From a virus, in IMG/VR virus record IMGVR_UViG_3300042934_000426, positions 1 through 64,000 of that record: a stretch of DNA of 64,000 nucleotides; one strand, given 5' to 3'. Every line of letters begins with the position of its first letter. The stretch's first letter is position 1. Of this stretch, positions 9,227-59,000 are shown in pieces. Position numbers and translations under genes: made by a program. The notes beneath the pieces are model-generated. The model saw nothing but the letters and a program-made list of their open reading frames with translations. It was not told where the DNA came from and did not search any database.

Positions 9227-9420
9227 AAATGGGAAATCGCTTATTACGTATCAACTCGTACTGAATACTCGACGTCACAGCACTTTATTTTTTTGAAAAA
9301 TATTTTTTTTATTTTTTTATTTTTTGGAGAAGAAAAAAATAAATTTTTTTCTTAAAAAAATTTTCGTGTGTCACCCCACTATACCGTACCAACTCGTACG
9401 TAATAGGCGATTTCCCATTT
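9227..9420. repeat. Paired-palindrome locus 1 (candidate origin or recombination site)
   Basis: 24-bp outer inverted repeats (9227-9250 and 9397-9420); cores TTATTACGTAT-CAACTC-GTACTGAATAC (9241-9268) and CTATACCGTAC-CAACTC-GTACGTAATAG (9379-9406) flank an A/T tract. Confidence 0.85.
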
Positions 9421-9449
9421 TCGCTCTTTGCTTTAGTACACTAAAGTTA

Positions 9450-9483
9450 CGAACATTTGTACGTATTTTAGAACATTCGTTTG
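9450..9483. promoter_or_regulatory. Two tandem Bacillus LexA (SOS) boxes
   Basis: CGAAC-ATTT-GTACG (9450-9463) and AGAAC-ATTC-GTTTG (9470-9483) vs consensus CGAAC-N4-GTTCG. Confidence 0.6.
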
Positions 9484-9600
9484 GGGGGAGGGGTATACTG
9501 GTTGTTGTCTTTTTATAGAATGATACAATCGAAGGGGCTGTAAAAAGGAAAATAAAGGGGATTTTGGGGTATGACGCTCGGCTATACTTTAGTCATGGAC

Positions 9601-9790
9601 ATAAAAAGACCCCTATCTATTGGCGTCGATAAGGGTCAACCCGAAGTCTTTCGTTTCCATAAAAAGCCTTCGGACGACTGCGTGGATACTGCTATACCAC
9701 TATAGTCGTTAATTGGAGGAATGATAAATGGATGAATTCAGCACCTTTTGAAGTTATCCTTCTATTGGTTACTCACCCATAATATACCAA
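9601..9790 (-). ncRNA. Candidate ~190-nt small RNA
   Basis: SigA-like promoter TTAACA-17-TATAAT (9794-9822), intrinsic terminator at 9601-9637, no convincing ORF between them. Confidence 0.4.
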
Positions 9791-9866
9791 TCCATTATAG
9801 CCTTGTCTATATATTCTGTTAAATACAAATAAAAAAGCCCAGGGCATATGCCCCAGGCTTCGGAAG

Positions 9867-10142
9867 TTAGTCTATTGTATATCTCAAGGAATATCTCTCC
9901 CGCTTCGTTCTGTCTCTTGCTTTATCTCCGAAGGCTACAAATACTTCATTTTCGTTGTTCGGAATCACGACGACTTCCATACCCATGTATTCATATAGGT
10001 CACCGACATTTCCACCTACTAGTAAGCGGACGCTTTGTACCAGTTCAATGTAGGCATATTCGCTTAGTACTAGCACCTTCGGCTCATGTGCTTTCTTTGC
10101 TCGGTATTCGTCTAGCTCCTGAGTAATGATACGCTCTAACAT
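9867..10142 (-). CDS. Hypothetical protein
   Basis: ORF followed by a terminator hairpin (9831-9860). Confidence 0.6.
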   Translation of the reverse strand: MLERIITQELDEYRAKKAHEPKVLVLSEYAYIELVQSVRLLVGGNVGDLYEYMGMEVVVIPNNENEVFVAFGDKARDRTKRERYSLRYTID

Positions 10143-16410: not shown

Positions 16411-16500
16411 AGTTGTACAGCTCCTTTGAGTTTTGTTTTAGGGAAGGTAGCACCCTTCCCTCATACTTAACATACATACGCCAATTACTTTTCTCTACGC
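16411..16500 (-). promoter_or_regulatory. Repeated promoter-hairpin-RBS cassette
   Basis: GCGTAGAGAAAA..GGCGTATGTATGTTAAGTATGAGGG-hairpin-A tract-GGAGCTG. Confidence 0.8.
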
Positions 16501-16773
16501 TTGCTTTTTGGCGTAGTATTCTTTCACTTGGTTCAAGTGCCAGCGAAGGTCACTTTCCAGGTTATACGATTGAAATACAATACCACCACCGAACCACTTC
16601 GCACGGTACTTTGTAAGCTTCGGAATTCTCCCATAATCAGCCAGCTTAATTCCCAATGATAGGAAATGCACCACATAGCGGGCGTTTCCGTTAACATCAT
16701 AATTAATTTTATGATAGCCGATTTCCTCACCATCTAAGGTAATGTACTTCTTTGGGTATTTTGCGTTTGACAT
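16495..16773 (-). CDS. Hypothetical early protein
   Basis: RBS-supported ATG at 16773; ends GCG TAG inside the next cassette. Confidence 0.7.
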   Translation of the reverse strand: MSNAKYPKKYITLDGEEIGYHKINYDVNGNARYVVHFLSLGIKLADYGRIPKLTKYRAKWFGGGIVFQSYNLESDLRWHLNQVKEYYAKKQA

Positions 16774-16788
16774 ATTGACCAGCTCCAC

Positions 16789-16877
16789 TTCTCTTTTTAT
16801 TTTTAGCGGGATTTAACCGCTGATTTCCGACGCCCTTCGGAACACGATAAGTTCCGAAGAGTGCCAGCCTATCAGGA
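16789..16877 (-). other. Conserved intergenic RNA hairpin element, copy 2
   Basis: CTGAT...ATCAG basal stem (covaries with TTGAA/TTCAG), then AGCGG..CCGCT. Confidence 0.55.
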
Positions 16878-17303
16878 TTAAATACTTGTGATTCCAGGTA
16901 CACCGTGTTTCTTGCAAAGGACTTCGAATTCCCGTGTGGTTAGGTAATAGTACAGGTCGGATTCTTTCGAGCCTGGTTCACCTTTGTACGTTTCACCACA
17001 ATTTTCGAACCAGCCTTTCATGGTTTGGTGAATCGGGTAGTATTCGTATTGTACGCTGAAGCAAGAAGGAAGCCCTAAAATCCAACTCTTAAAAGCTTCG
17101 TAGCGGTTAGGTGTTTGCTTCTGCTCGTATGGGCTATACCAATTTTTGAATTCGTCGATTACGATTTGTAATTGTGTAGTTACCAGGTTTTCTTCCGTTG
17201 TTTGAATATCATACCCGCTTTCGATTTCTGCTTCGTCTAACATGATGTTCATTACGTGCTCCTGTACGAATCCCTTGAATACCTTTTTTGTTGTGATTGC
17301 CAT
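16878..17303 (-). CDS. Hypothetical early protein
   Basis: RBS-supported ATG at 17303. Confidence 0.7.
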   Translation of the reverse strand: MAITTKKVFKGFVQEHVMNIMLDEAEIESGYDIQTTEENLVTTQLQIVIDEFKNWYSPYEQKQTPNRYEAFKSWILGLPSCFSVQYEYYPIHQTMKGWFENCGETYKGEPGSKESDLYYYLTTREFEVLCKKHGVPGITSI

Positions 17304-17383
17304 TTTCAACCAGCTCCTTAGTTTTTGTTTGGGGCTCTCACCCTCATTACTACCATACATACGGCTTTTATTTTTCTCTACGC
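17304..17383 (-). promoter_or_regulatory. Repeated promoter-hairpin-RBS cassette
   Basis: GCGTAGAGAAAAATAAAAGCCGTATGTATGGTAGTAATGAGGG...GGAGCTGG. Confidence 0.8.
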
Positions 17384-17536
17384 TTTGATTTCTTCGACGA
17401 TTTCTTCCGTTTCAGCATTGCGAATCATGATGGTTTTGTTTTCTTCTTCGTAAACCATTTTTGCAACCCGTCGAGCGGTTTCGATGTCCTCAAATGTTCC
17501 CCAGGTATAAACGTATGTGCAAACTCGATATTTCAT
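17378..17536 (-). CDS. Small hypothetical protein (52 aa, not in the ORF track)
   Basis: MKYRVCTYVYTWG...EEIKA*; GGAGCTGG RBS and own promoter. Confidence 0.65.
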   Translation of the reverse strand: MKYRVCTYVYTWGTFEDIETARRVAKMVYEEENKTIMIRNAETEEIVEEIKA

Positions 17537-17617
17537 TGTGACCAGCTCCTTCGTTACTTTTAGTATAACCGATATTGAACAACTTTGAACAACGTAAATC
17601 CTGGAAAAGCCAACGCA

Positions 17618-18016
17618 TTACGCGTCGGCTCTCTCACAGTACATAATACCTATGCTTCCATCCGCTTCGTGCTGACCAATGTAATACTGACCAGGTAAGG
17701 AAGTGTGTTTGTTCAGGTGAACAGCCAGCTCTTCACAAATGATGTCGTACTTCTCGATGACGCGTTCCAATCCGTTTTTAGTCGGTGCGGAAGAGCCTGT
17801 GATTTCTCGGTTAAAAAGTTCGGTCGCAAATTGCCCGTGTGCTCCGCTGACTATATCCATTGCCCATACCGTATACAACCCTTCTTCGTTTGGTTGTTCG
17901 TCTTCGTCACGCAACCAGTTAATAAATCCGCTTACTTGTAAGTCCATGTTCTTTTGTCCTTCTTTTCCAACGTTGACTAGGTACCACTCTTCGATTAATG
18001 TGTTTAATGATTTCAT
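17618..18016 (-). CDS. Hypothetical early protein
   Basis: Start reassigned to the RBS-supported ATG at 18016. Confidence 0.65.
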   Translation of the reverse strand: MKSLNTLIEEWYLVNVGKEGQKNMDLQVSGFINWLRDEDEQPNEEGLYTVWAMDIVSGAHGQFATELFNREITGSSAPTKNGLERVIEKYDIICEELAVHLNKHTSLPGQYYIGQHEADGSIGIMYCERADA

Positions 18017-18019
18017 GTG

Positions 18020-18115
18020 TTCCAGCTCTCCTTTGATTTGTTTTAGGAGCGGGGGCTGATAGCCAGCACGCTCCCTCATACTTACCATACATACGCCTTT
18101 CATTTTCCTCTACGC
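18020..18115 (-). promoter_or_regulatory. Repeated promoter-hairpin-RBS cassette
   Basis: GCGTAGAGGAAAATGAAAGGCGTATGTATGGTAAGTATGAGGGAGC...GCTCC. Confidence 0.8.
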
Positions 18116-18297
18116 TTATTTATTTCCTCTTTACGCTCGGCTCTTGCTATTGCTATTTCTTGTTCTAATTGGAGCTTCACACTTCGAAGCTCCTTTATGT
18201 CAGCCATTCTAGTACGATTGTTGAGCCGATAAGCAATCGAATGGTTAATTGATTCGATTAATAGGTACTTTTGGCTGTTTGTCAATTCCATTACCAT
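18100..18297 (-). CDS. Small coiled-coil hypothetical protein
   Basis: ORF reads into the next cassette's promoter. Confidence 0.55.
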   Translation of the reverse strand: MVMELTNSQKYLLIESINHSIAYRLNNRTRMADIKELRSVKLQLEQEIAIARAERKEEINKRRGK

Positions 18298-18310
18298 TAC
18301 GTCCTTTCGT

Positions 18311-18991
18311 TTAGAAATGCGGGTCATAGTAGCGTCTAGCACTTCCGAAGCTCACTTTTAAATTACAAGGCGTTTTCCACATCCCTAATTTGGTCTTCCG
18401 AACCGTGTGAGTATTACCATTCGGATTTGAAGTGTATTCATATTCAGCCGTTCCGTCGTGCTCTGTGCCTTTGGTGATTTTCCAATCCATAGATTGAATC
18501 GTAACCGTCTTCCCGCTTGGGCTTACTTTAATGACTTCGTACGGGGCACAATCCGAAAGGTAGTAGCCCGTGGCTTTCATACCCACGGTTACGTCATGTG
18601 GTACGCTTCCTTTCTTCGGTGTCATTTCAATCCAGCCTTCCGAAGAATCCCCGAAGTAGTAATATGTGCCATTGATTCGAATAATATCGCTGGTGCTGAT
18701 AGAACGTCCTTTGAATCCGAAGTGAGATTGCATGACTTCCCTGGACTGTCTTTCTGCTGGTGAATTCGTCAGCTCGTAGAATTTCCAAAGTAGGTTCTCA
18801 TTTGTTTCAGGCTTCGTATAGAATAACACCGCACCGTCAATATTGCTTTCACCGAATACCACTTCGTACGCTTTCATATCGTAGGCGTTGCGGTCTTGCC
18901 CAGCGTGCTCTTCCATAAATTCTAGGCTCATAAATCCGTGTTCTCTTGTCATGCCTTGCTTCACTTGGAATACCGTTACTAATGTTGTCAT
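18311..18991 (-). CDS. YodL-like domain protein with an extra C-terminal domain
   Basis: VFQ...FMSLE...YEVVF...FKGRSISTSDII...YYYFGDS.GW matches the YodL-like pattern. Confidence 0.6.
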   Translation of the reverse strand: MTTLVTVFQVKQGMTREHGFMSLEFMEEHAGQDRNAYDMKAYEVVFGESNIDGAVLFYTKPETNENLLWKFYELTNSPAERQSREVMQSHFGFKGRSISTSDIIRINGTYYYFGDSSEGWIEMTPKKGSVPHDVTVGMKATGYYLSDCAPYEVIKVSPSGKTVTIQSMDWKITKGTEHDGTAEYEYTSNPNGNTHTVRKTKLGMWKTPCNLKVSFGSARRYYDPHF

Positions 18992-19075
18992 GTTTACCAG
19001 CTCCTATTTATTTGTTCTAGCGGTTAGTCACCGCTGAATTCCCCGCCTTCCGAAGAAGGCGAAGTGTTCAACCTA
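18992..19075 (-). other. Conserved intergenic RNA hairpin element, copy 3
   Basis: GGTTGAACA...ATTCAGCGG..CCGCTAGAA...GGAGCTGGTAAACATG. Confidence 0.55.
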
Positions 19076-19303
19076 CTAACCTAGAAATCTTACATCCTTC
19101 CATAGTCTTTCTAGTTGCTTAATTTCCTTTTCATCACTAATCCCTACCCAGCGAACTTGAAAGCCGTCTTCACCACCATATTTGAACCAGGTTTTTTCCG
19201 TGTTAATCATTAATGAGTACGTGCCGTCTACCGTTGTCACTTCGAAGCGAATTCCCTTCGGAAGTTTCGTAACCTCTTGAATCACCATTGTATTTTTCAT
19301 CAT
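19076..19303 (-). CDS. Hypothetical early protein
   Basis: Cassette-driven ORF. Confidence 0.65.
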   Translation of the reverse strand: MMKNTMVIQEVTKLPKGIRFEVTTVDGTYSLMINTEKTWFKYGGEDGFQVRWVGISDEKEIKQLERLWKDVRFLG

Positions 19304-19387
19304 TCTAACCAGCTCCTAGTTTTTTATTGGGGGAGCACCCGCTCCCCTCATTACTACCATACATACGACTTTTGTTTTTCTCTACGC
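19304..19387 (-). promoter_or_regulatory. Repeated promoter-hairpin-RBS cassette
   Basis: GCGTAGAGAAAAACAAAAGTCGTATGTATGGTAGTAATGAGGGGAGC..GCTCCCC. Confidence 0.8.
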
Positions 19388-19651
19388 TTCGATGTAGAAG
19401 TGAACCCGATTACCTAATTCGTTGTTACAGTTGTAGTAAGCGTAAGCGTCGATGTCTTCTTGAAACGTTCGGAAGCCTTCGTTGGTGTGTCGGAATCCTT
19501 CGCTAGTGTAGGCACCTCCAAAGCCATTCCCTAACCACATACCGCCAGGTCTTACGTTCGAAGGAAGCATACAGACGACTAAGGATTCCCCTGACTTCAA
19601 TCTCTTTAACTGGGCTCTTACTTGTGACTTCGTTACCTTTTTTAATTCCAT
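19382..19651 (-). CDS. Hypothetical early protein
   Basis: Cassette-driven; ends GCG TAG in the next cassette. Confidence 0.7.
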   Translation of the reverse strand: MELKKVTKSQVRAQLKRLKSGESLVVCMLPSNVRPGGMWLGNGFGGAYTSEGFRHTNEGFRTFQEDIDAYAYYNCNNELGNRVHFYIEA

Positions 19652-19745
19652 GCTTATCCAGCTCCTTTAGTTGTTTTAGGGGAAGCGCTTCGGAAGCCCT
19701 TCCCCTCATACTTACCATACATACGCCTTTTGTTTTTCTCTACGC
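19652..19745 (-). promoter_or_regulatory. Repeated promoter-hairpin-RBS cassette
   Basis: GCGTAGAGAAAAACAAAAGGCGTATGTATGGTAAGTATGAGGGGAAG..CTTCCCCT. Confidence 0.8.
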
Positions 19746-20411
19746 TTCCTTTTGAGCCTTTTGACGCTCTCGGTATAGTCTCGAAGCTTCTCGGCTGATA
19801 CGCTTACGCTCTTCGTCGGTTAATTTGGCTCGGTAGCGATTGGTGCGTTCACGGGCTAGCTTACGCTCATGCGCTACCTTCTCCCGCTTCGCTCGTTCTC
19901 GGTCTGCCTTCTGTTGGTTCGCCTTCTGTGGGTCTGCATAGTAGGCGTCTAGTCCTCGCTGACGTTTGGCTTCTCCGTTAACAACCTTCGTGCTCTGAAT
20001 CCGTACAATATCCGAAGTCATTAAGTCGTGCATTTTAATCGCTTGCACCGTCTTCCGAAGGGTGTAACATGGTAACCATCCGTCTTTAAAGTCAATAAAG
20101 CCCCGCTCTTCTTCCTCTTCGATTCCCGTACCATAGAAGTCATAGGTAATGACCACGCGCTCACGTAGGTTCTTCCAGGCTTCGAGCAATACGTCATAAG
20201 TCACTTCTTTCATGGTGTCTTCCAGCTCTTCACAATAAAGTTCCACTTCGATTCGGGTCACGTCTTCTAATGGCTTAATCATATGGTGAACTAATTGGTT
20301 CACACTTCCGAAGGATTCGATTGTGTCACGGGTGGCGATAACGTGAAGCTCCGTGCCTGTGTTCAGGTGTACTGTGATAGGGTATTCTCTTTCCATCGTT
20401 AATTCCGTCAT
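19740..20411 (-). CDS. Hypothetical protein with basic helical C-terminus
   Basis: GGAGCTGG RBS; ends GCG TAG. Confidence 0.7.
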   Translation of the reverse strand: MTELTMEREYPITVHLNTGTELHVIATRDTIESFGSVNQLVHHMIKPLEDVTRIEVELYCEELEDTMKEVTYDVLLEAWKNLRERVVITYDFYGTGIEEEEERGFIDFKDGWLPCYTLRKTVQAIKMHDLMTSDIVRIQSTKVVNGEAKRQRGLDAYYADPQKANQQKADRERAKREKVAHERKLARERTNRYRAKLTDEERKRISREASRLYRERQKAQKEA

Positions 20412-20500
20412 GCTGACCAGCTCCCTTTGATTTGTTTGTATTGACGGGTGTACCGTTCACATGAGTAGTATATGGGGGCTTTCGCCCCCTGGTGCTTGTG

Positions 20501-20659
20501 CTACCCAAAAATTTTTGTTTTGCCAATGACATACACGTTTTTGATTTGGTCTTTATAGCGCTCATACCAGGCTTCGAAGTCGTTGTTATTCAGGAATACG
20601 TCGGTGCATTTCATATGTTGGTCGTCCATAAAATTGTAGTGGTATTTAACGGTAATCAT
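20501..20659 (-). CDS. Small hypothetical protein
   Basis: RBS-supported ATG at 20659; promoter with TGAACAA boxes. Confidence 0.6.
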   Translation of the reverse strand: MITVKYHYNFMDDQHMKCTDVFLNNNDFEAWYERYKDQIKNVYVIGKTKIFG

Positions 20660-20770
20660 CTGACCAGCTCCCTTGTAGTTGATACCCTTATTATACACAA
20701 CAATGAACAACTTTAAACAACGCAATAAATGGAAAAAGCCCGCAACCCCTGGGGGCTACGGGCTTCGGTG

Positions 20771-21331
20771 TTATTCGGTAATGTAGGTAAATTTTGCTCT
20801 TGTGAATCCTTTGACACCTTTGAGGTTCTTTTCTGCTTGGTCACGTCCGATTCCACCTGTTACCATGCAATCTGTCTTACTCATGATAACACCCACCATT
20901 CCGAATTCTTTCAAGAAGGAAGTAGACTGAGATAAAGCTTTGTCTTTTTTGGCTTGCGGAAGGTCTTTCCAATTCTCGTTCTTTTCTAGTTGCTGTAGCA
21001 CCGTTAATTTTTTTCCCTTCATAACAGACTTTTCTACAAATTGCACCTTTATAGGGTCGTTGTAATTAGGTATACTTCCGAAGGCTGAATCTAATTCAAA
21101 GCTCCCTACCGCTTCAACGACTTGCTTCCATACGTTCATCGGGAAAGTGGCGTTCTTTACGGGCTTCCATTCGTCTTTGATTTTCTTCATCGTGATAACA
21201 TTAACAAATTGCTTACCGTTTAGCTCACATAGTTTTACGACGCGGTTTTCATACTCATTTACTGAAATCACTTTTACCAATGTTTCCATATCCCATGAGA
21301 ATTCTTTCTTTTCTGTTGTTTTCTTTGTCAT
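20771..21331 (-). CDS. PC4/YdbC-like ssDNA-binding domain protein
   Basis: VVKLCELNGKQFVNV....EWKPVKNATFP..VW resembles the PC4 fold. Confidence 0.5.
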   Translation of the reverse strand: MTKKTTEKKEFSWDMETLVKVISVNEYENRVVKLCELNGKQFVNVITMKKIKDEWKPVKNATFPMNVWKQVVEAVGSFELDSAFGSIPNYNDPIKVQFVEKSVMKGKKLTVLQQLEKNENWKDLPQAKKDKALSQSTSFLKEFGMVGVIMSKTDCMVTGGIGRDQAEKNLKGVKGFTRAKFTYITE

Positions 21332-21429
21332 CCTAACCAGCTCCATTTCGTTTTTGTTTTAGAAGCGAAGTCTTATCGACCCCGCTCCTTCATTACTAGC
21401 ATACATACGCCTTTATTTTTTATCTACGC
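21332..21429 (-). promoter_or_regulatory. Repeated promoter-hairpin-RBS cassette
   Basis: GCGTAGATAAAAAATAAAGGCGTATGTATGCTAGTAATGAAGG. Confidence 0.75.
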
Positions 21430-21804
21430 AAAAGATTGGAAACCGCGAACACCAATAATCTTATCATTCTCGTCACGAATAGCTGTTTCATTCGTTAGGG
21501 GGCTTATCACGTCGGGACGCTTCACATGCTTCGCTACAATATAGGACGCAATGTAAATTGTTCCTTCGACAGGTTCAGGAAGCCCATACACATCTTTGTC
21601 TGTTAGCTTCGCTACAGGAATCGCTAACTCTACGCCTGGAATCAATTCTACTGCTAGGGTTGTGCGCTCATGGTTTGATTCCATTCGAGCGATTTGCCCC
21701 GAAGTCTTGAACGTCAACTTCATTCCATTCGTGTCTATCAGTGTGACGTCGTGCGGGCATAGATTATGGAATTTTACACCTTTAAAATTTGTTGTTTCTG
21801 CCAA
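21424..21804 (-). CDS. Conserved viral hypothetical protein (NLxPH family)
   Basis: NLCPHDV...GLPEP..GTIYIAS..VA...RPDVISP...RDE...IIG; TTG start. Confidence 0.65.
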   Translation of the reverse strand: MAETTNFKGVKFHNLCPHDVTLIDTNGMKLTFKTSGQIARMESNHERTTLAVELIPGVELAIPVAKLTDKDVYGLPEPVEGTIYIASYIVAKHVKRPDVISPLTNETAIRDENDKIIGVRGFQSFA

Positions 21805-21892
21805 ACTAACCAGCTCCATTTCTCTTTTTATGTAAGAAAGCCATTGGCTTCCTCATTATTATCATACATACGCTATTTATTTTTCTCTACGG
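21805..21892 (-). promoter_or_regulatory. Repeated promoter-hairpin-RBS cassette
   Basis: CCGTAGAGAAAAATAAATAGCGTATGTATGATAATAATGAGG. Confidence 0.75.
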
Positions 21893-22406
21893 CTTCGAAA
21901 GAGTGGGTCATAAGCTCTCCACGGGCTTCTATAGCCTTTTGATTAGCTTCTTCAGCGGTTTCGTATGCTCCTAAGTAGACACGCTTTTTATTAATACTTA
22001 CGGAAGCCGTATATTTATCTAGTTTTTTGTTGTAGTAAACACCGCGATAACCTGTGCTATTGTTTGTTCGAAGCTTCGTAAGATTCTGATTGTTTTCTCC
22101 CTGGGTACATATACGAAGATTACTTCGCTTGTTGTTTAGTTTATTGCCGTCAATATGGTCAATTACTAGCTCGTCGGGACAACCCATGATTACTCGGTGT
22201 ACTCTGTACTTATTCCTATGAACGTAGTCTTTATCATGCCTACAATAGGTGTTCATAATGACATAGCCACGTTCATCTATTTGCCAGCTAAAGTCAGCTA
22301 TACCAATAATGCCCAGGTCTTGCGTATCAATAATAAATTCGCCCTTCGAAGTTATAATGTAAGTTATATCTCCTTCGATTCTGAATTGATTTCTCATGTG
22401 TAACAC
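21873..22406 (-). CDS. HNH endonuclease with AP2 DNA-binding domain
   Basis: VHRVIM...IDHIDGNKLNNKRSNLR plus STGYRGV...YLGAYETAEEA. Confidence 0.9.
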   Translation of the reverse strand: MLHMRNQFRIEGDITYIITSKGEFIIDTQDLGIIGIADFSWQIDERGYVIMNTYCRHDKDYVHRNKYRVHRVIMGCPDELVIDHIDGNKLNNKRSNLRICTQGENNQNLTKLRTNNSTGYRGVYYNKKLDKYTASVSINKKRVYLGAYETAEEANQKAIEARGELMTHSFEAVEKNK

Positions 22407-22469
22407 TCCCTTCGGTATATATTGTAAATCTTAGCACCACGGTTTGTAAATACTTTTCTCTACGGTGTC

Positions 22470-22496
22470 ACACACGGGCATACGCCCGCATAGAAT
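22470..22496 (+). promoter_or_regulatory. SigK/SigE-type (mother-cell) promoter
   Basis: AC-N17-CATAGAAT vs SigK consensus AC-N16-18-CATAnnnT. Confidence 0.5.
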
Positions 22497-22527
22497 GTAC
22501 GACAATGAAAGGAAAGGGTTGGTAACA

Positions 22528-22758
22528 GTGGAACAATTACCTAAAATGATTAATTGCCGTCTAAAAGCGGACGATAAAGACCTACAAGAAATGTTAGCGA
22601 AGGCTTCGGATAAAACCGCACGTATTAAGGAACTCATTCGAAAAGGATTAGAAGCCGAAGCCCAACCAAAGGTAAAGGAAATCAAAGCGCCTTCGAAGTC
22701 TTACACGTATTACCAGGGGGACATAAAAGTGGCAAAACCGCTTATACTCGTTCCATAA
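22528..22758 (+). CDS. Ribbon-helix-helix (CopG/ParR-like) DNA-binding protein
   Basis: MINCRL...DKDL..ML...[14 protein letters not shown]. Confidence 0.55.
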
Positions 22759-22824
22759 GTAGCTGTAGCCTTATTTTATCACGATTCGTCAAACTTGTCT
22801 TCCATTGTTGGAAGTTATTCACCT

Positions 22825-22853
22825 TTGATATCTTCTTCGAAGCGGGGTATACT
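22825..22853 (+). promoter_or_regulatory. SigA-type promoter of the SASP gene (overlaps a SigF-like -10)
   Basis: TTGATA-17-TATACT; GGGTATACTA also fits the SigF -10. Confidence 0.55.
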
Positions 22854-22913
22854 AAGTTTAAGCAAGCGGGGAACAACACCCAGCTTGACTTACAACCCAA
22901 AGGAGAAGTGATA

Positions 22914-23105
22914 ATGATGGCACGTTCAAACCAATTAATCGTACCTGGTGTAGAAAACGCATTAAACAACATGAAAGCTGAAATTGCTTCCGAATTCGGG
23001 GTACAATTAGGCGCTGACGCTACAGCTCGTCAAAACGGCTCAGTCGGTGGCGAAATGACAAAGCGTTTAGTGGCATTGGCTCAATCTCAATTAGTAGGCA
23101 AATAA
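22914..23105 (+). CDS. ssp: Alpha/beta-type small acid-soluble spore protein
   Basis: [10 protein letters not shown].[21 protein letters not shown], the canonical SASP signature including the GPR cleavage site EIASE. Confidence 0.95.
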
Positions 23106-23106
23106 G

Positions 23107-23208
23107 GTGTGGCGACTACTGGTTATCTACGCGATACCACTAGTGGTTATAATAGTTGCTTTCTTATCTGATAAATTTTCGAAATGGGACGAATCAAATG
23201 GCTCTTAA
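23107..23208 (+). CDS. Small membrane peptide (33 aa, not in the ORF track)
   Basis: MWRLLVIYAIPLVVIIVAFLSDKFSKWDESNGS, directly after ssp. Confidence 0.4.
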   Translation: MWRLLVIYAIPLVVIIVAFLSDKFSKWDESNGS

Positions 23209-23301
23209 CTGAATATACTATGGATACCAGCTCCCGAACATACATGAACGGGATTTTAGCCCCAGGGATTTCCTGGGGCATTTTTTATAGGTGGTGATAG
23301 C

Positions 23302-23658
23302 ATGAACGCTAATGGGCACGCGATTGTTGGATTGGTCTTCGTCGTAAGTGCAAAAGTAATCGCGCCTGAAGTTGTAGGCGCACAGGAATTCGTCTTTACC
23401 CTATTCGGAAGTTTACTTCCTGATATTGACCATACACGAAGTACATTGGGTCGATTCAATCCCTTCGCCCGATGGATGAAGCATAGAGGAAAAACGCACA
23501 CCCTCATAGGCTCTATTTTACTTTGTATGCCGTTTTTGGTCTTCGGTGGACTTCTACCCTTCGGATTCGTTTTACTTGGCTGTGTCAGCCATTTAGTAGG
23601 TGATAAGCTGTATAGTTGGTTACCACGTAAAAAACCCTTCGCCATTCGTCTATGGTAA
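23302..23658 (+). CDS. YdjM-like metal-dependent membrane hydrolase
   Basis: GH...GSLLPDIDH...HRGKTHTL...SHLVGD. Confidence 0.85.
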   Translation: MNANGHAIVGLVFVVSAKVIAPEVVGAQEFVFTLFGSLLPDIDHTRSTLGRFNPFARWMKHRGKTHTLIGSILLCMPFLVFGGLLPFGFVLLGCVSHLVGDKLYSWLPRKKPFAIRLW

Positions 23659-23699
23659 AGGGTTTTTCTTTTACGAAAAATAATTTTTATCGGACACGC

Positions 23700-23726
23700 A
23701 CACATGGGAAGTGTGCCCATAAAATA
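23700..23726 (+). promoter_or_regulatory. SigK-type promoter
   Basis: AC-N16-CATAAAATA, an exact match to the SigK consensus, ~40 bp upstream of 23766. Confidence 0.6.
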
Positions 23727-23765
23727 CAGGGACGATACACCTAAGATACGAAGGAGCTGAGGAAC

Positions 23766-24224
23766 ATGAATCAAATAAAAACAGTAGGCACATTTCGGGA
23801 GATAGCGACACTAGAAAGAATGTGCCCTGAATTAAACTGGTTTGAGTACGAACAATTAATCGAAGGTCGAAGCTTTACCCGCTGGTATGTCAAAAATCGG
23901 AAAGTCATCAATAAGCTTGCTTTAGCCACTCCCGCTTTTGCTATGACGGTGTTCAAAGTATCTCCGATGTTTTTACTAGGAACGCTATTGCCACCGATTG
24001 CCATTCCTGTAGCGGGGTCGTTCTTCGCTGGGCACGGGGTCATTCTTCTTCATATGCTGATTATCGGTTTTTTAACGCTAGTGGTGACGACGTTCTTGAA
24101 GTTCACAGGTCGCGGGGACTTAGCGCCATTAGTTATGTTTGTGGGTGGGGGTGTCATACTCTATGAAACGTTGGGTCTCTTTAAAGCGATATATACGTCC
24201 GTCGCTACTTTTTTCAATATGTGA
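23766..24224 (+). CDS. Membrane protein with C-terminal SpoIIIAC/AD-like domain
   Basis: MLIIGFLTLVVTTFLKFTGRGDLAPLVMFVGGGVILYETLGLFKAIYTSVATFF resembles the SpoIIIAC pattern. Confidence 0.55.
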   Translation: MNQIKTVGTFREIATLERMCPELNWFEYEQLIEGRSFTRWYVKNRKVINKLALATPAFAMTVFKVSPMFLLGTLLPPIAIPVAGSFFAGHGVILLHMLIIGFLTLVVTTFLKFTGRGDLAPLVMFVGGGVILYETLGLFKAIYTSVATFFNM

Positions 24225-24322
24225 AGACGGGGTACAAAACCGCTTCGTTATTGGCATGATTATCGGCTTTTCTGCTATTACTGCCTGGGTACTCTATTTG
24301 ATACGGGAAGGGGTCTTCTAAC

Positions 24323-33610: not shown

Positions 33611-33753
33611 GTTTACCAGCTCCCTCTCTTTATTCCGTACGACTTGGTACGTTTTTAATGGTATCATTATGTTTTGCATTTGTCAACAACTTTATACAAG
33701 TGTGAACAAGTTAGTTTAAGGAAAAAGCGGGTGGTTAAACCCGCTTCGGAATA

Positions 33754-46321: not shown

Positions 46322-46699
46322 CTATTCACAAATTCTTTTTAGATACTTTTGGCGTATCTCTTGCATACGTGGCGTCGGAAGGTAGTATTTCTTGGATTCC
46401 CTTCGAATCAGTCCTAGTTGCTGAAATAACTTTAATCGCTTTAAGACGGGCTTATCACTGTAGCCTAGCTCGCCATAAACTTCCTGAGCGGTGACCACAC
46501 CCCTATCGACGATGAAGGTAATGAGCGCCTTCGTCAGGTCTTTGCTTCCCTGTTTATTCGTCGGGTGAAGCACGGTGCGAATGAATAACAGGTCTTGAAT
46601 GGAAAGGGGTTGAATGTCCTTATAGTGACCGCCCCGCTCTTTCCAGCGCTCGACGTCTTTTTGGTAATTCGATAGCACTTCTAACGCTTTTGCGTCCAA
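46322..46699 (-). CDS. Winged-helix DNA-binding protein (candidate binder of the 11-6-11 sites)
   Basis: VTAQEVYGELGYSDKPVLKRLKLFQQLGLIRR..KYYLPT wHTH; own promoter and operator. Confidence 0.7.
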   Translation of the reverse strand: MDAKALEVLSNYQKDVERWKERGGHYKDIQPLSIQDLLFIRTVLHPTNKQGSKDLTKALITFIVDRGVVTAQEVYGELGYSDKPVLKRLKLFQQLGLIRRESKKYYLPTPRMQEIRQKYLKRICE

Positions 46700-46720: not shown

Positions 46721-46781
46721 GAATTCAGTACGACTTCGTACGTTATATGATTAAGTATAACCAACTTTGAACAAATGTCAA
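46721..46781 (-). promoter_or_regulatory. SigA promoter with downstream 11-6-11 operator
   Basis: TTGACA-16-TATACT (46754-46781); ATATAACGTAC-GAAGTC-GTACTGAATTC (46721-46748). Confidence 0.75.
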
Positions 46782-47048: not shown

Positions 47049-50000
47049 TTATGTGTTCAAGTATTCAATGAACTTCGGTAACTTCCGAAGCCCATCACGG
47101 GTACGTTTAATCATGCTATGCTTCGTGAGGATTGCCAGTCGGTCATTCACCTGTTTTCGCTCGAATCCTAACATATCGATAATCTCGGCTGGCTTCAGAA
47201 TATCGTTCTTTCGGAAGAGCTCTAGGATTTCTTCCGATACGGCTACGTTCTCCCCGAAGTCCATGTTTTCAAGGGTTTGGCGAATCTCTTCCGCTTCTTC
47301 TTCGGTCAGCTCGGATTCTTCTTTGCTCTTGGCACTATAAATGTCTAGGCGGGCGTTTTGGTTGTCGTAAATCACTTGGATAAAGTCAGCTACATACTCC
47401 ACATGGTCAGGATTCACAATCACCTTCTCATGCGCTTCGTCGGTTGAATGAAGCAAGCTTGCTAGACTAATAGCCATACGTGCAATCTTCTTCCGAAGGT
47501 CAGACGGCTCTAAAAGCGGAATGTCCTGAGCGTAGCCGTACTTCTCGCCTAACTCGTCAGCCTTCGCTAGAATCTTACGCATAGCGGGCTTCGTAATCTC
47601 AATGTGTTCAGGTTTGCGTGACCACGCCCATAGAATCGAATCCCGAAGAGCTTCGGAAGTGATTAGTTGAACTTCGGGCTTGTCGTATTCCTGATTGAGT
47701 ACCGCCTTCGTGACGTCACCTGACTGAAGGAATATCGCCATATCCAAACGTCTGATATCTGCTGGTGAAGCGAACAACGGTTTTAAGGCTTCTACCCCAT
47801 GCGTGAAGCTCGATAGCGTTCTTGCCTTCGCTGGGTTCGTTAAAAGGATTAATCGGACACGGGCGTTGGTTTCGGTGTTGACCGTACGGTCTACTCGAAG
47901 TACCCCTGTGGTTCTCGCTTCGGTAATCTTACCAAAGTCTTCAGGGTGTAATTCAGAAAATTCGTCGATTGCGATTAGCTTGCGGTCACTAAGCGGGTAT
48001 TTCCCCCAGGTGATGAACCATCGTTCACCCATTTGCTCTAGGCGGTAGACTAATCCTGTACGGGACGTTCCTTCCCCTGACGTCATATTTCCTAGCCCCG
48101 CGAATTCCATAATGTTGCTAACAAGCTGGGTCTTCGCTTGCCCTGAATCTCCGACGAATACCGTTTCCAGCCAGCCACGCTTTTCGAGCTGACCCTGGAA
48201 ATAATAGTTTAAAGCGGAATGGTAGGTTAATAGTACCGCCAGGTGTGGCTCGAAGCGTTCTCGTACCAGGGTCACGTTGTCTACCAGGTCGCCTACTAAC
48301 AGGCTCACTCTATCGTCAATCGTTTCCCCTTCTTGCACCTTGAATACATCTAATCGTTGTCTAGCCTCTTCGGTCATTTCAAACTTTGATATGCTATCCT
48401 CTAACGGCTCTTGCTTTTGGCTCAGAATGGTCGCCATAGCGTTTTTCGGGTGACTATAGACATAACCCTCTAGGTCATAGTGTGTATTCGCCTGTACGTC
48501 ATTTCCGACGGCATACACCTTACGGGTCACGTACTCATTTCCTTCTCCGTCTACTTCCTTCGAAGACCCGTCTTCCCCTTTGACCGTCTTTACACGGTCA
48601 GCCATGGGCACCACTAGGAGCTCGGTGATATTTTCGTGTTCCAGCACTTCGGATTTAACCTTCTTACAGGAAGCTCCTGAATGGTGGAAGAGTATTCCTT
48701 TTAGCTGGGTATCATTTTGGTTGGTGGCTTCGATTAGGAATCGTTCATTTTCATGGAATTCCCGCTCGTATAGCCCACCGAAGTCGTGCATAATACAATC
48801 TTTGTCACAGAACGGTTCATGGCTACATACATAGCGAACCTTCTTTGGCACAATGTAAGGCGTATCCATTTTCCCTGATACCAGGGCGCTAAACGCTACT
48901 TTCTTTCCTGTGAATTCGGCATTAGCTGTCTTCGCTAGGTGCATGTGCTCGGCTGGCTCTTGGTCAATGGCGAAGTCTTCGTGGGCTGGGCATGCACGCC
49001 CCGCACATGGAACGGTTTCATAGTCACGTCCCTTACGCTCTCCTGATAGGCTTCGAATGAAGGCACAACCGAAGTGGTACTTTTGGTCTTCGTACACCGT
49101 TTTAATACACCCAATCGTAGACGCTTGCACTTCCGAAGGAGAAGAGCTAGTGAACGACTTCGGAATCTTTTTGACCCAATCGCACAAAATCTTGACCGTT
49201 TCGCTCATAGGGTAACCAGCGTCTTTATAGTACGAAGCTAGCGCCATTGTCGCTTTGTTACGGTCGCCTGATTTGAGGATTCCACGCTCGATGATAAATT
49301 GAACACATACAGGTACACCTTCCATTTGCTTTAGTACGGTGTCCTTTAGGGTTACACGGTCTGTATAGAGCTTATCAACTTCTTCCCATGCTTCGACTTT
49401 ACTCGCATACCATTCGTGAATGTCTTCGTTCAAATTGTACTCACATTGGTCAGGCGGGTAGAGGTCAGGACGTGGTGACTTTGCCAATCCATTAATGATG
49501 TTCCGAAGGTCGCTTTTCACTTCGTCATGGGTCAGTTCTACTTTGAATAGCCCGCTCTTATAGTGGATGGAATTCACCAGGCGAAGCATGCGACGGGTTC
49601 CGTAAATGGAAGAGGAATCTAAGCTTTTTAGTCCTAGCTGGGTTTCTAAGGTAACCGCGATAAACTTGATAATTCGGTTTAGCTTTTTATGTGGCTGGAT
49701 TCCCATAATCGTCGGATTCGCAATCACATGGAAGCCCTTCGAACCGCTGAAGTACACCCTGATTTCGTCTTCAGTTACCTGAAATCGCTCCGTGAAGTAA
49801 TGAAGAATCTTTACGACGTCACTTCGGCTCATTTCCAGGTTTTTAATCCATACAAAATCAGTACACGCCTGGTCACTGTCCACATAGTCATTAATCGATT
49901 GATTCGTGTCTTTTGATAACGGAATACCCATTTCGTAATTGCGAAGGTGTAATAATAGGTTTTCAGGTAATAGTCCGATTAATTCGTCCGCCTTTACCGC

Positions 50001-50318
50001 TCCCATTTCGACCAGTCCTGGGGCTTCCTGAATAACACCTTCTTTTACTTCCGAAGTAAGACTTCGTGAGCTATCAATATCGAAGAATAACGGCATATAA
50101 AGGAGCTCGGCTTCCCCATCAGGTCTTACCTTGTTACGAAAAGTTTGAATGGTGGAAAATACGTTGTAATTGCCGTATTGTTGCCTGAAGTCTTCCAGCT
50201 TATCCGCTTCGGTGCGGTTCCATTTCGTGTTCACGCCCGTTTGCGGGTTCTTGTGGTAGACGTCCACATAGAGGAAGTCCTCTAGTTTGATTTCGCTTTT
50301 CTTTTTCCCTTTTGCCAT
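47049..50318 (-). CDS. AEP primase / PriCT / MCM-like helicase fusion
   Basis: FFDID and FSGSKGFH (AEP), GDRNKATMALASYY (PriCT), VGDSGQAKTQ, IAIDEF, LLTNP, DIRRLD (MCM-type AAA+). Confidence 0.85.
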   Translation of the reverse strand: MAKGKKKSEIKLEDFLYVDVYHKNPQTGVNTKWNRTEADKLEDFRQQYGNYNVFSTIQTFRNKVRPDGEAELLYMPLFFDIDSSRSLTSEVKEGVIQEAPGLVEMGAVKADELIGLLPENLLLHLRNYEMGIPLSKDTNQSINDYVDSDQACTDFVWIKNLEMSRSDVVKILHYFTERFQVTEDEIRVYFSGSKGFHVIANPTIMGIQPHKKLNRIIKFIAVTLETQLGLKSLDSSSIYGTRRMLRLVNSIHYKSGLFKVELTHDEVKSDLRNIINGLAKSPRPDLYPPDQCEYNLNEDIHEWYASKVEAWEEVDKLYTDRVTLKDTVLKQMEGVPVCVQFIIERGILKSGDRNKATMALASYYKDAGYPMSETVKILCDWVKKIPKSFTSSSPSEVQASTIGCIKTVYEDQKYHFGCAFIRSLSGERKGRDYETVPCAGRACPAHEDFAIDQEPAEHMHLAKTANAEFTGKKVAFSALVSGKMDTPYIVPKKVRYVCSHEPFCDKDCIMHDFGGLYEREFHENERFLIEATNQNDTQLKGILFHHSGASCKKVKSEVLEHENITELLVVPMADRVKTVKGEDGSSKEVDGEGNEYVTRKVYAVGNDVQANTHYDLEGYVYSHPKNAMATILSQKQEPLEDSISKFEMTEEARQRLDVFKVQEGETIDDRVSLLVGDLVDNVTLVRERFEPHLAVLLTYHSALNYYFQGQLEKRGWLETVFVGDSGQAKTQLVSNIMEFAGLGNMTSGEGTSRTGLVYRLEQMGERWFITWGKYPLSDRKLIAIDEFSELHPEDFGKITEARTTGVLRVDRTVNTETNARVRLILLTNPAKARTLSSFTHGVEALKPLFASPADIRRLDMAIFLQSGDVTKAVLNQEYDKPEVQLITSEALRDSILWAWSRKPEHIEITKPAMRKILAKADELGEKYGYAQDIPLLEPSDLRKKIARMAISLASLLHSTDEAHEKVIVNPDHVEYVADFIQVIYDNQNARLDIYSAKSKEESELTEEEAEEIRQTLENMDFGENVAVSEEILELFRKNDILKPAEIIDMLGFERKQVNDRLAILTKHSMIKRTRDGLRKLPKFIEYLNT

Positions 50319-55865: not shown

Positions 55866-56584
55866 TCCTTCCCGAATATACCGTTATCAACGGCAATGTA
55901 AAAATCCTTCGTACTCATAGAACATCCACAGCATTTACGATAACCCGTCCAGGCATGGTAGTGAAAAGGTTGCCAGTCTACGCAATACCCACAATAAAGG
56001 GCTTCTTTATTGCTTGGTTTTGCTTCCACTAGGTTCCGAAGTTTAGCTTCGTCTAGGCGCATTTGAAGCTTCTTCGGTAGAACGCTAGGCTTTAGTAAGG
56101 TGATGAATCGGTCTTCGGAAGCCCCTTTATTCAGGCGCTTGAAAAGGTCTTGCTTCGCCTTGTATGACAGCTCCCTCATTTGGAATACGCTTACTTGCTC
56201 TTCATGCTTCACAGGTTCGTCGGGCGACGTCGTTCTTGTATGAGCTGGTCTAGGTTCGGCTGGTGGATTTGGGCGTTCGCTGGTAACAATAGGCTTCGAA
56301 GCTTCTGTGCTCTTTCTTGCTTCAGGCTTTTGCTTTGGTTCTTGTTTGATAGCTTGCTTGACTTCTTCCTTCTTGCCATTTGCTTTCTTCCCTTCAGTGG
56401 TCTTCGGAAGCTTAACTGGCGGTGCTGGGCGTGCTGGTGTCTTTTTAGTTGCCACGGTAGCGGGTGTTGCGGTCTTCTTTGATTGCACTTCGGAAGTCTT
56501 CGTAGTAGTCGGTTGAGCTGGTGTAGCCGTAGTCCCAGGTACTCTTTTCTTCTTTGCGTTTTTCGTTGCGATTGTCATTGTCAT
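55862..56584 (-). CDS. Lys/Pro/Thr-rich protein with C-terminal zinc finger
   Basis: Low-complexity N-terminus; CGYC...CCGC. Confidence 0.65.
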   Translation of the reverse strand: MTMTIATKNAKKKRVPGTTATPAQPTTTKTSEVQSKKTATPATVATKKTPARPAPPVKLPKTTEGKKANGKKEEVKQAIKQEPKQKPEARKSTEASKPIVTSERPNPPAEPRPAHTRTTSPDEPVKHEEQVSVFQMRELSYKAKQDLFKRLNKGASEDRFITLLKPSVLPKKLQMRLDEAKLRNLVEAKPSNKEALYCGYCVDWQPFHYHAWTGYRKCCGCSMSTKDFYIAVDNGIFGKE

Positions 56585-56740
56585 TTCCCCCATTACATGT
56601 AATCTGATAACTGTTATATGAATCTCGTATGTGTATAGCTGTGTGCTGGTTATGTGAAGGGCTTCGCTCGACAAAAGGAGCGAAGACCCATGACACACAT
56701 TTCAAAAATATCCATCCTACGACTATCCAGAATAGGACTA

Positions 56741-57187
56741 TCATAGTTTCAGCACGGCTTCCTTGAATTCCTTGATAGCCGTCTTAATTTCCCTTCGTTG
56801 GTTCTTCGTCGAAGCGGTATGGTCGTACTCGCTAACGATTTCTTGCTCTACGTCTTCGTACATTTGCCACAGGTAAATAGCGGTACCTCGATAAAGAAAG
56901 ACGAATACGTGGTCTTTGTAGACGATTCGGTGGTTACCTTTCGCATACTCTCCGTGTATCATAGCTTCGTGCATGTTTCTACTTTTCAGCTTCCGAAGAC
57001 CGTCAATATAGACGCTCTTCGGAAATTGGTGGATAAAGCTGACCGCAAGTTTTCGAGCGGTATCAGGTTCTAACAGCTTCAAGAGGTCTTCCCTTTTTGC
57101 TCCATATATTTGAGATAAGTAAACCTGGTAACCACCAGGTTTACTTCGATAACTATTCAACGGTAATAAGCTCCCCATCACGTACAT
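56741..57187 (-). CDS. Hypothetical protein
   Basis: 148-aa ORF. Confidence 0.6.
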   Translation of the reverse strand: MYVMGSLLPLNSYRSKPGGYQVYLSQIYGAKREDLLKLLEPDTARKLAVSFIHQFPKSVYIDGLRKLKSRNMHEAMIHGEYAKGNHRIVYKDHVFVFLYRGTAIYLWQMYEDVEQEIVSEYDHTASTKNQRREIKTAIKEFKEAVLKL

Positions 57188-58478
57188 ACACCCCTTTGTT
57201 AAAGTCGATTTGGTGACGCTTCGCCTGATAGGTAATCGTCGCTGGTGTCTTTCCGAAGTGCTCCGCTACCGCCTTCATGGAACCTAATTCCCGATAAAGC
57301 GTGATAATGTCTTCAGGGTTATCGTGGCTTCGAAGTCTTTGGTTCTTCACTTCTACCGCTACGATTTTTGCCTTCGGCTTCTTTGGTGTTTTTGGTTCTT
57401 CCGTTTTCACTTTTTTCGTCCCCTTCGGCTTCTTTGGTGCTTTAGGCTTTTCTTCCGAAGCTTGCTTTTCTTGCTCTTGTTCGATTTCCTTTACTTCTTC
57501 ATTGTTCACTTCGTCAGGCACGACTTCAGCGGTGTTATAGGCTATCCAATGAGTATACCCCTCTTTGTAAGCGTTATGACCTTTTTGGTACGTCCCTTCT
57601 TGTGCTTCGGTGATAGGCTCAGTCGATGTCCCTTTATGCTCTTCGATAAAGAATTCCTTTTCGTCCTTGGACTTGAATTTTTCGAAGTAGCGATAAGAGG
57701 CGCGCATATTCTTTTCAATCGCGTCTTCTCCTGGCTTCTCGACGTGTGACTGTGTTACCTGAATGACTTTCCCACCCTTCGGTACTTCAATATAAGGGGT
57801 ATCACAAACCATACACACCGCATGAATCTGACGTGTGCACCATACCGTAATACGGTGACCATTCGAAGCCACACAACGACAAATGAACTTACGGTTATAG
57901 CTTTGTGGTTCAGGCATTTTGGCTATATTCCCATAGCATTGAGCGCCTTTTGCGGGAATTCCTACAATTTGCGCGTAATCTTTGAAATCTTTGTTATGCC
58001 AATCTTTCGGGCGCTTCTTTTGGTTCTCTGTCGGTTCTTCACCAGGCTTCGCATATAACACTTCGTCTTGCCATTGGTGAATCATTTCGTGTCGAAGCGT
58101 TTCTAGGATTCGCTCTTCCGTATTTAATACGATGAAGTTTCGGTTAAAGCGAATATGACGCTCAATCCCCATATTATCGGTGCCTGGCGTGTAGTTGCCT
58201 AATGTCTTATTAGAAAGCTTATCAATGGTAATCAGAGGGTAAGATAATTGACCCTTGAAGTATTCTCTATTGTAGTCTTCCCACTTCTTATAAAGAAGCC
58301 CTAAGAATTCATTTTCCTTCGTTAGAAGCCCCATTAGCGCCTTCTTTAGCGTTTCTTGGTCTACTTCGATAATCTCCTGTTCGTCAGGCTTTTGTAGGAT
58401 GGTACCATCCCCTAAGTCCACTTCCACCATATCGACTACTTGTTCGACTTCTTTCTTTTTCCCTTTCGTTTTAGCCAT
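57153..58478 (-). CDS. SprT-like zinc metalloprotease domain protein
   Basis: NREYF.GQL...LG...ETLRHEMIHQWQ...H.KDFK; zinc ribbon; C-terminal HTH-like segment. Confidence 0.8.
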   Translation of the reverse strand: MAKTKGKKKEVEQVVDMVEVDLGDGTILQKPDEQEIIEVDQETLKKALMGLLTKENEFLGLLYKKWEDYNREYFKGQLSYPLITIDKLSNKTLGNYTPGTDNMGIERHIRFNRNFIVLNTEERILETLRHEMIHQWQDEVLYAKPGEEPTENQKKRPKDWHNKDFKDYAQIVGIPAKGAQCYGNIAKMPEPQSYNRKFICRCVASNGHRITVWCTRQIHAVCMVCDTPYIEVPKGGKVIQVTQSHVEKPGEDAIEKNMRASYRYFEKFKSKDEKEFFIEEHKGTSTEPITEAQEGTYQKGHNAYKEGYTHWIAYNTAEVVPDEVNNEEVKEIEQEQEKQASEEKPKAPKKPKGTKKVKTEEPKTPKKPKAKIVAVEVKNQRLRSHDNPEDIITLYRELGSMKAVAEHFGKTPATITYQAKRHQIDFNKGVYVRDGELITVE

Positions 58479-58811
58479 GTTCAGCCAGCTCCTTGTATTT
58501 TATTTTAGGGGGCTTTCGCCCCTTCTAAGTGTAGTATACGCTTCCGAAGTATTTTTTATTCCTTCGTTGCATTTGCTTTAATGAAAGACATAGAACCTTG
58601 TACAACCAATAACGTAGGTAAATGTGACGTGCTACCCTTCGGTTCACGAATAGCCGTTTCAAGTTCTTTTTCTAATTGTTTCCATGCCTTTTCGTAATCG
58701 ACCATATACCCCCACCCCCTCAACTCCGTTTTTGGTTCTAAAATTAGTATACAACAATGAACAACAATTTACAAGCGTAAACATTTACCACCTCCTTTTC
58801 AGGCAAAAAAT

Positions 58812-59000
58812 TTTGGGAAATCGCCTATTACGTATCAACTCGTACGTAATACTCAATGACACACGCTATAGTGTCTATCTGAAAAATTTTTTATTTTTCT
58901 CTCCGCTGATAAAAAATAAAAAAATAAATTTTTGAAAATCAAAACCCTTGTGACACCACTACTACGTACCAACTCGTACGTAATAGAAGGTTTCCCATTT
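58812..59000. repeat. Paired-palindrome locus 2 (candidate origin or recombination site)
   Basis: Cores CTATTACGTAT-CAACTC-GTACGTAATAC (58825-58852) and CTACTACGTAC-CAACTC-GTACGTAATAG (58959-58986); outer GGGAAA/TTTCCC arms; A/T tract between. Confidence 0.85.

Follow-up and report, generated by a model that had tools for sequence, protein, structure and literature searches.

Paired palindromes around A/T-rich centres, most likely replication origins, in a new group of uncultured phages of about 100 kb

In the viral contig IMGVR_UViG_3300042934_000426 from IMG/VR (104,950 bp), whose first 64 kb (64,000 nucleotides) are referred to here as the window, we examined two distant loci of about 190 bp, A and B, each made of two palindromic cores around an A/T-rich centre. 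These loci are interpreted as conserved cis-acting units of the form palindrome-unwinding element-palindrome and are most likely origins of phage DNA replication, a reading that we favour at slightly less than even confidence. It is favoured because the sites flank the DNA of lowest stability in the genome, because the loci occupy two conserved positions, because a copy of the site reads as the operator of a winged helix-turn-helix (wHTH) gene, and because an extra copy of the element is found among the late genes. The initial annotation had offered two replication origins as one of two alternatives; the A/T minimum, the conservation, and the wHTH operator speak for that alternative, with the count of loci to be corrected from two to three.

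The ends of the contig overlap by 127 bp, which is indicative of a circular assembly of ~104.8 kb, and almost all genes lie on the minus strand. Relatives were found in IMG/VR as complete contigs of 94, 102, and 107 kb along with fragments; their gene order follows that of this genome, with proteins 30-79% identical and a GC content of 43-57%. Searches of phage and genome databases returned no close relative among catalogued phages, and PolA is <30% identical to that of any catalogued phage; these phages of ~100 kb form a new group that lacks cultured or annotated relatives. They are likely to be virulent, since no integrated relative or copy was found in 185,579 species genomes.

Architecture and conservation of the paired loci

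Locus A (9227-9420) is an inverted repeat over its whole length, running from outer arm through core, A/T centre, and core to outer arm. Its left core (9241-9268, plus strand) has the inner arm GTAT and its right core (9379-9406, plus strand) the inner arm GTAC, both with the spacer CAACTC, and its A/T centre (9284-9363; 93% A+T) is a candidate unwinding element. Locus B (58812-59000), at the junction of the late/lysis genes and the early genes, repeats this architecture with cores at 58825-58852 and 58959-58986 (both plus strand) around an A/T centre at 58866-58945, which has the second-lowest stability among the 80-bp windows. Much of what had been described from the window alone was recovered: two distant loci of one architecture, at these coordinates and with locatable 28-bp cores, core spacings of 138 and 134 bp (start to start), four CAACTC spacers in one orientation on the plus strand, and A/T tracts between the cores, which measure 106-110 bp and are 73-78% A+T. 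The statement that extended outer arms (TGGGAAA... / ...TTTCCCA) turn each locus into an inverted repeat is exact for A, whereas the repeat at B is less perfect. Either locus as a whole folds as a single long hairpin, with z = -6.4 (A) and -5.9 (B) against shuffles. The paired-palindrome observation is real and far above chance, with 4 matches to ACGTAC-N6-GTACGT at ≤1 mismatch against 0.12 expected, and with 0 of 100 shuffles reaching 4.

A search of the full genome brought to light a third locus, C (genome 89185-89368, outside the window), located between a giant gene of 2302 aa and a late gene of 91 aa. Compared with the reverse complement of B, C has 80% identity (~93% over the right ~120 bp), and the spacer of its left core is flipped. 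Among the relatives examined it occurs in this genome only, and because its position is a short junction of 19-56 bp in three relatives, C is taken to be a recent insertion. Two further single core-like sites, at 33630-33657 and 46721-46748, are described below. A and B, for their part, are conserved in all relatives: every related contig examined (~94-107 kb) carries paired loci at the same two positions in the gene order, namely upstream of a terS-like gene and terL (A) and upstream of a SprT-like gene, the first early gene (B), so that each genome holds two or three elements of ~190 bp.

Comparison of 32 sites from about 12 lineages yielded a core consensus of ~28 bp, AATTAC-GTAC-[CAACTC]-GTAC-GTAATT, which is a palindrome of 9/10-6-9/10 layout. 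Arm positions 2-4 and 7-9 are 84-100% complementary, with positions 5-6 looser. The spacer reads CAACTC in 25 of the 32 sites, and all 32 keep its middle ACT, part of this invariance being ascertainment, since the sites were collected with a pattern tolerating ≤3 mismatches; the mismatches were allowed anywhere in the pattern, and partner sites were located by position. The near-invariant asymmetric spacer spans lineages that are 14 GC points apart, and the cores as a whole are much better conserved than the neighbouring intergenic DNA. Most loci combine one GTAT-type core with one GTAC-type core, and the cores of a locus are 133-148 bp apart, or 172-173 bp in a single lineage. In lineage L089, the two cores have both changed to GGAAC/GTTCC arms, so that the change on one side is compensated on the other; this potential natural specificity variant (L089 2079-2250), known from a 6-kb contig alone, keeps the CAACTC centre despite its altered arms. 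The orientation of the spacer varies freely within loci and differs among orthologous loci (direct in 7, -+ in 7, and +- in 1), and ++, -+, +-, and -- all occur. A near-invariant asymmetric centre with free orientation is the most unusual feature of the element.

Across lineages, the A/T blocks between the cores are ~105-145 bp long and consist of dense A and T runs, often as A(n)T(n); the centres are 55-78% A+T even in genomes of 55-57% GC. When all 80-bp windows of each genome were ranked by nearest-neighbour stability, the three least stable windows of this genome (ranks 1, 2, and 3) proved to be the locus centres, with A in rank 1 and B in rank 2. The centre of A has a dG of -80.6, where the genome averages -108.6 (sd 5.3). 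In the relatives, the centres take ranks 1 and 2 (G005), 3 and 5 (G001), and 2 (G002). No 10-11-bp periodicity of A-tracts was seen in the centres; as this periodicity is absent and the core spacing is variable, a phased static bend or loop was ruled out as the design of the loci. Public contigs of relatives often break inside the A/T centre (the starts of L085, L093, and L097 and the ends of G005), and the ends of G005 overlap by ~85 bp before they diverge within an A/T run. These breaks are probably assembly failures at homopolymers or low-complexity DNA, with real DNA ends as the alternative.

The candidate binder and the origin reading

A single core-type site (46721-46748, minus strand; spacer GAAGTC on the coding strand) lies over the transcription start of the wHTH gene and reads as an operator. 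In 10 of the 12 lineages the site at the wHTH promoter is 11-13 nt past the -10 hexamer, and the other two have no separate promoter. A second single site (33630-33657, minus strand; spacer CAAGTC), which among the genomes compared is present in this one only, is 5 nt past the -10 of the promoter TTGACA-17-TACCAT, ahead of a 75-aa gene. No other promoter in this genome bears a core-type site, which argues that the wHTH protein is not a general repressor of early genes. Both single sites have the layout of ArsR/MarR-type operators, with half-sites ~10 bp apart and overlap with a promoter, whereas the paired loci overlap no promoter. A single site so placed at the wHTH promoter is what an initiator under autoregulation would be expected to show.

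The wHTH protein (125 aa; 46322-46699, minus strand), the candidate core binder, is kept in all relatives, and its gene sits between those of an MCM-type primase-helicase and PolA. Its AlphaFold2 model (predicted local distance difference test, pLDDT, 80.6) resembles ArsR/SmtB/MarR/CodY-type regulators and the centromere binder AspA at a template modelling (TM) score of about 0.45-0.5; the modelled fold thus resembles a winged helix of the dimeric-regulator type. The protein is represented by 78 metagenome clusters in which the recognition helix is near-invariant, and such an invariant helix would match the conserved GTAC half-sites. When helix and arms were compared for covariation, the helix was nearly invariant across the 78 clusters, and the lineage with altered arms, L089, was represented by its 6-kb contig alone. 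We infer that the wHTH protein is the best candidate for binding the cores. The primase-helicase (1089 aa; 47049-50318, minus strand), the helicase presumed to be loaded at the elements, has an MCM AAA+ domain (E 1.6e-13), weak PriS/PriL-like matches in its N-terminal part, and weak wHTH-like matches in its C-terminal part. The whole looks like a fusion protein in which an archaeo-eukaryotic-type primase is joined to an MCM AAA+ domain and a C-terminal winged-helix-like region.

Two properties of replication origins are found at the loci, in that specific repeated sites flank an AT-rich segment and that this segment lies at a duplex-stability minimum, in this genome and in three relatives. In the mechanism proposed, dimers of a phage winged-helix protein, for which the 125-aa ArsR/MarR-like protein is the best candidate, would bind both cores, with recognition helices contacting the GTAC half-sites 10 bp apart and wings contacting the outer AATT. 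The A/T centre between the occupied cores would melt or extrude, and the PriS/PriL-MCM-type primase-helicase would then be loaded at the opened centre, where replication would start. A core-type site on the promoter of the wHTH gene itself would provide autoregulation. The two elements at the module boundaries would be ancestral, one of them maybe a late origin or a fork barrier, as proposed for oriR of phage SPP1, and locus C would be a recent extra copy.

Comparable designs are known from other systems. In archaeal oriC, inverted origin recognition box elements flank a DNA unwinding element, with the winged helix of Orc1/Cdc6 as the reader and MCM as the helicase, and in oriS and oriL of herpes simplex virus, UL9 boxes flank an A/T spacer, with three origins per genome. 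The likeness lies in inverted elements around an A/T centre, in the use of an MCM or SF2 helicase, and in more than one origin per genome; in contrast, there is no sequence relation, and the candidate binder of the phage is small, ArsR/MarR-like, and without an AAA+ domain. The closest phage precedent is SPP1, which has two similarly organised origins, made of repeats and an AT-rich unwinding element and both bound by one protein (PMC6316719). Its oriR lies in a late-gene intergenic segment bracketed by transcription signals and is proposed to stall forks, and A+T-rich islands stand out more than any other compositional feature of the SPP1 genome (PMC6316719). The elements described here share with oriL/oriR of SPP1 and their binder gp38 the two similar copies per genome of initiator-binding repeats with an AT-rich element, one of them late-intergenic. 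SPP1, however, has its repeats in direct orientation and to one side of the unwinding element, an oriL inside the initiator gene, and a DnaB-type helicase with a loader, whereas here a palindrome stands at either side of the centre and the helicase is of the MCM type; homology to gp38 was found neither in sequence nor in protein. The ori of Staphylococcus aureus pathogenicity islands (SaPI) has iterons on both sides of an AT-rich centre, in opposite directions and bound by a winged-helix domain, and two helicase hexamers are thought to load, one per side (PMC9371898). SaPI, with their self-loading Rep/PriRep helicases, are thus alike in having sites that flank an AT centre and a winged-helix reader; their iterons, however, are of 5-6 bp and directly follow rep, and their helicase itself contains the winged-helix domain, whereas here 28-bp palindromes lie at a distance of 12-37 kb from the gene of the helicase and the leading candidate binder is a separate wHTH protein of 125 aa.

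Several observations weigh against an origin. Neither GC nor AT skew has a step or reversal at any locus in four genomes, so that the change of GC skew looked for at the loci did not appear, which is a weak test for phages with genes on one strand. Many phage origins lie within or beside the initiator gene, whereas these elements are separated from the helicase and wHTH genes by 12 kb and 37 kb. A symmetric dimer leaves the near-invariant asymmetric spacer and its free orientation unaccounted for. The C-terminus of the helicase, with its weak wHTH-like matches, could be the binder instead of the wHTH protein, whose binding we infer. Lastly, the conserved loci are just upstream of operon starts (the early promoter; terS-terL), a placement that suits a regulatory or packaging role too.

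Alternative explanations for the loci

The main rival to the origin reading is a transcriptional or architectural boundary element that uses the same protein, an explanation we hold to be possible but unlikely. The wHTH protein would then be a transcription factor, and the paired sites would activate, repress, or insulate the two main operons, possibly by bridging of the cores. The single sites are classic operators over transcription starts, and the predicted ArsR/MarR fold is that of a regulator. Each locus is placed between a terminator-like hairpin and the next operon; B is ~65 bp upstream of the -35 of a SigA-type early promoter (58746-58774, minus strand; TTGTAA-17-TATACT), which is directly downstream of it along transcription, and the B-type loci of relatives likewise precede SigA-type promoters. 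Nevertheless, the paired sites overlap no promoter, most early promoters have no site, and the core spacing is not kept to helical phase (133-148 and 172-173 bp), nor do the A-tracts have a 10-11-bp periodicity. Locus C, moreover, was inserted between two late genes that are contiguous without such an element in relatives, and a pair of operators needs no extreme density of A/T homopolymers. MarR/ArsR operators do resemble the cores in being pseudo-palindromes with half-sites one helical turn apart, AT-rich outer positions, and single sites over transcription starts, but promoter-free pairs around an A/T block of ~105 bp and a near-invariant asymmetric centre are not features of ordinary operators.

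A role in packaging, with locus A as the cos/pac region for terminase and the other copies secondary or decoy, is improbable. A and all its orthologues are 170-800 bp upstream of the terS-like gene and terL, terL is of the GpA type and therefore typical of cos phages, and the contigs of several relatives (L085, L093, L097, G005) end within the A/T centre. However, two or three near-equivalent copies per genome would give sub-genomic units of 49.6, 30.4, and 24.9 kb, and B is conserved at 45-50 kb from terS; where a cos/pac region would be terminase-adjacent with a single functional copy, A alone adjoins terS/terL. The contig breaks are probably accounted for by assembly failure at homopolymers or low-complexity DNA, and the site doubles as the operator of a gene of the replication cluster.

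Still less probable is a selfish palindromic repeat, like a miniature inverted-repeat transposable element (MITE), that spreads within phage genomes without a function for the phage. The whole locus is indeed an inverted repeat with strong hairpin potential, and C, at 80% identity to the reverse complement of B, is inserted in this genome only. A and B, however, are fixed in synteny across lineages with 30-79% protein identity, and their cores are conserved; no target-site duplication was visible at the flanks, and no match to an integrase or resolvase family was found in the genome. Of the features of a MITE, the loci therefore have the inverted repeats and lack the duplication, and only C is newly inserted.

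The initial annotation had also entertained recombination sites of Xer/dif-like or lox-like kind that excise a circle of ~49.6 kb; such sites, whether they excised or inverted genome segments, are the least credible of the explanations weighed here. Inverted arms around a near-invariant asymmetric 6-bp spacer are what crossover regions require, the four cores of A and B all point the same way in this genome, and dif/Xer, loxP/Cre, and FRT/Flp sites likewise consist of an asymmetric 6-8-bp spacer between inverted 9-13-bp arms. The 11-6-11 layout, taken earlier as recombinase geometry, is however not diagnostic, because a distance of 10 bp between half-sites is the normal geometry of a winged-helix dimer and the GTAC half-sites fit such a dimer equally well. 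No cognate recombinase is encoded: Phage_integrase (PF00589) and Resolvase (PF00239) gave no match at E≤1 in the complete genome, with control genomes positive, so that the lack of a recombinase observed in the window extends to the whole genome, and no relative was found integrated in the 185,579 species genomes. Since spacer orientation is fixed neither among nor within orthologous loci (7 direct, 7 -+, and 1 +-), no consistent product of excision or inversion could be selected. Unlike dif, lox, and FRT sites, moreover, these sites come in close pairs around A/T DNA and serve over promoters as operators too.

Four further candidates were rejected. An oriT of the Replic_Relax/VirD4-like island (22.4-27.9 kb) does not fit, as the island is absent from G001 and G005, which keep the paired loci. 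Rolling-circle (HUH) nick hairpins were set aside with no Rep_trans/Rep_1 match in the genome and with mismatches at arm position 1 on either strand, partition centromeres with no ParA in the genome and a sole, sub-threshold ParB_N-like signal inside a 1109-aa protein of the virion module, and restriction-site avoidance with GTAC not depleted.

Gene neighbourhood and the wider genome

The gene content between A and B bears out the earlier view that the two loci bracket the early/replication region. This early block encodes SprT-like, SNF2, primase-helicase, wHTH, PolA, ribonucleotide reductase, dUTPase, RuvC, sigma factor, and exonuclease proteins. Along transcription, the order is lysis/tail-end genes, terminator-like hairpin, locus B, SigA-type promoter, and early block, of which the SprT-like gene (57153-58478, minus strand) is the first conserved gene downstream of B; locus A closes the block and is followed by the terS-like gene and GpA-type terL. 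The terS-like gene (286 aa; 8201-9061, minus strand), upstream of terL, is directly downstream of A at a distance of 166 bp, and the orthologues of A are up to 800 bp upstream. Its product has a protein-atlas match to the T5 small terminase (0.92) and no Pfam match, and its AlphaFold2 model (pLDDT 51) is too poor for a fold search; the terS assignment is a lead that makes this gene a candidate. The terminase large subunit (5544-7376, minus strand) has a GpA_ATPase match at E 1.1e-16.

Other sequence features were noted around these genes. The SigA-type early promoters carry TTGTTCAAAGTTG or a close variant within the spacer between -35 and -10 (46754-46781, 58746-58774, and 33658-33686, and family D10 at 17566, 20694, and 51935). 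This motif is kept throughout the lineages examined, in relatives also at promoters that precede terS, and may be the site of a second regulator or mark an unusual promoter class. A cassette of 43-62 nt occurs in twelve copies ahead of genes on the minus strand (16439-21892, 38456, 54478, 59865, 60484, and 60904) and resembles a non-canonical promoter with a leader hairpin; the phage sigma factor (28720-30117) may be what reads it. Upstream of locus A along transcription, ~450 nt of non-coding DNA (9421-9866, minus strand) contain both a strong promoter, TTAACA-17-TATAAT (9822-9794), and a pair of terminator-like hairpins (near 9660 and near 9605); this region is a candidate small RNA of 130-190 nt, with no Rfam match for it and no known RNA family in the window. 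Between terL and the portal gene (600-5500), several of the minus-strand ORFs at 974-5504, including a 682-aa ORF at 974-3022, have no counterpart in three relatives, and the region has internal repeats of 70-90 nt (families D7, D13, and D15).

The sole plus-strand island (22400-27931) has genes for an 841-aa VirD4/TraG-like ATPase and a 301-aa Replic_Relax protein and is common to this genome and G002 only, at 57-63% identity. The palindrome CTTCGGAAG has 72 copies in the genome against 0.3 expected (e.g., 9150-9165 and 61515-61568) and 17-81 copies in each of the three complete relatives; CTTCGAAG and TTCGAA are enriched in this genome only. The ParB_N-like domain, at a sub-threshold 21.5 bits, lies at genome 96874-97110 (locus L130, outside the window), and the 1109-aa protein that hosts it belongs to the virion-gene module.

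On the reading of the loci as origins, a broader and frankly speculative picture can be drawn, in which a widespread, uncultured clade of ~100-kb phages with Gram-positive (probably spore-forming) hosts would initiate replication in an archaeal/eukaryote-like manner. At each of the two or three origins of a genome, a stand-alone wHTH protein would mark the inverted sites that flank the unwinding element and would load a fused PriS-PriL-MCM primase-helicase there, and the CAACTC centre, instead of being a spacer, would be the signal at which loading or priming starts, in either orientation. The 28-bp site, the unwinding block of ~105 bp, and the 125-aa candidate binder are all cloneable parts. 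These parts allow the study of how an MCM-type helicase is recruited in a bacterial virus, and of why two or three such elements are located at the boundaries of genome modules.

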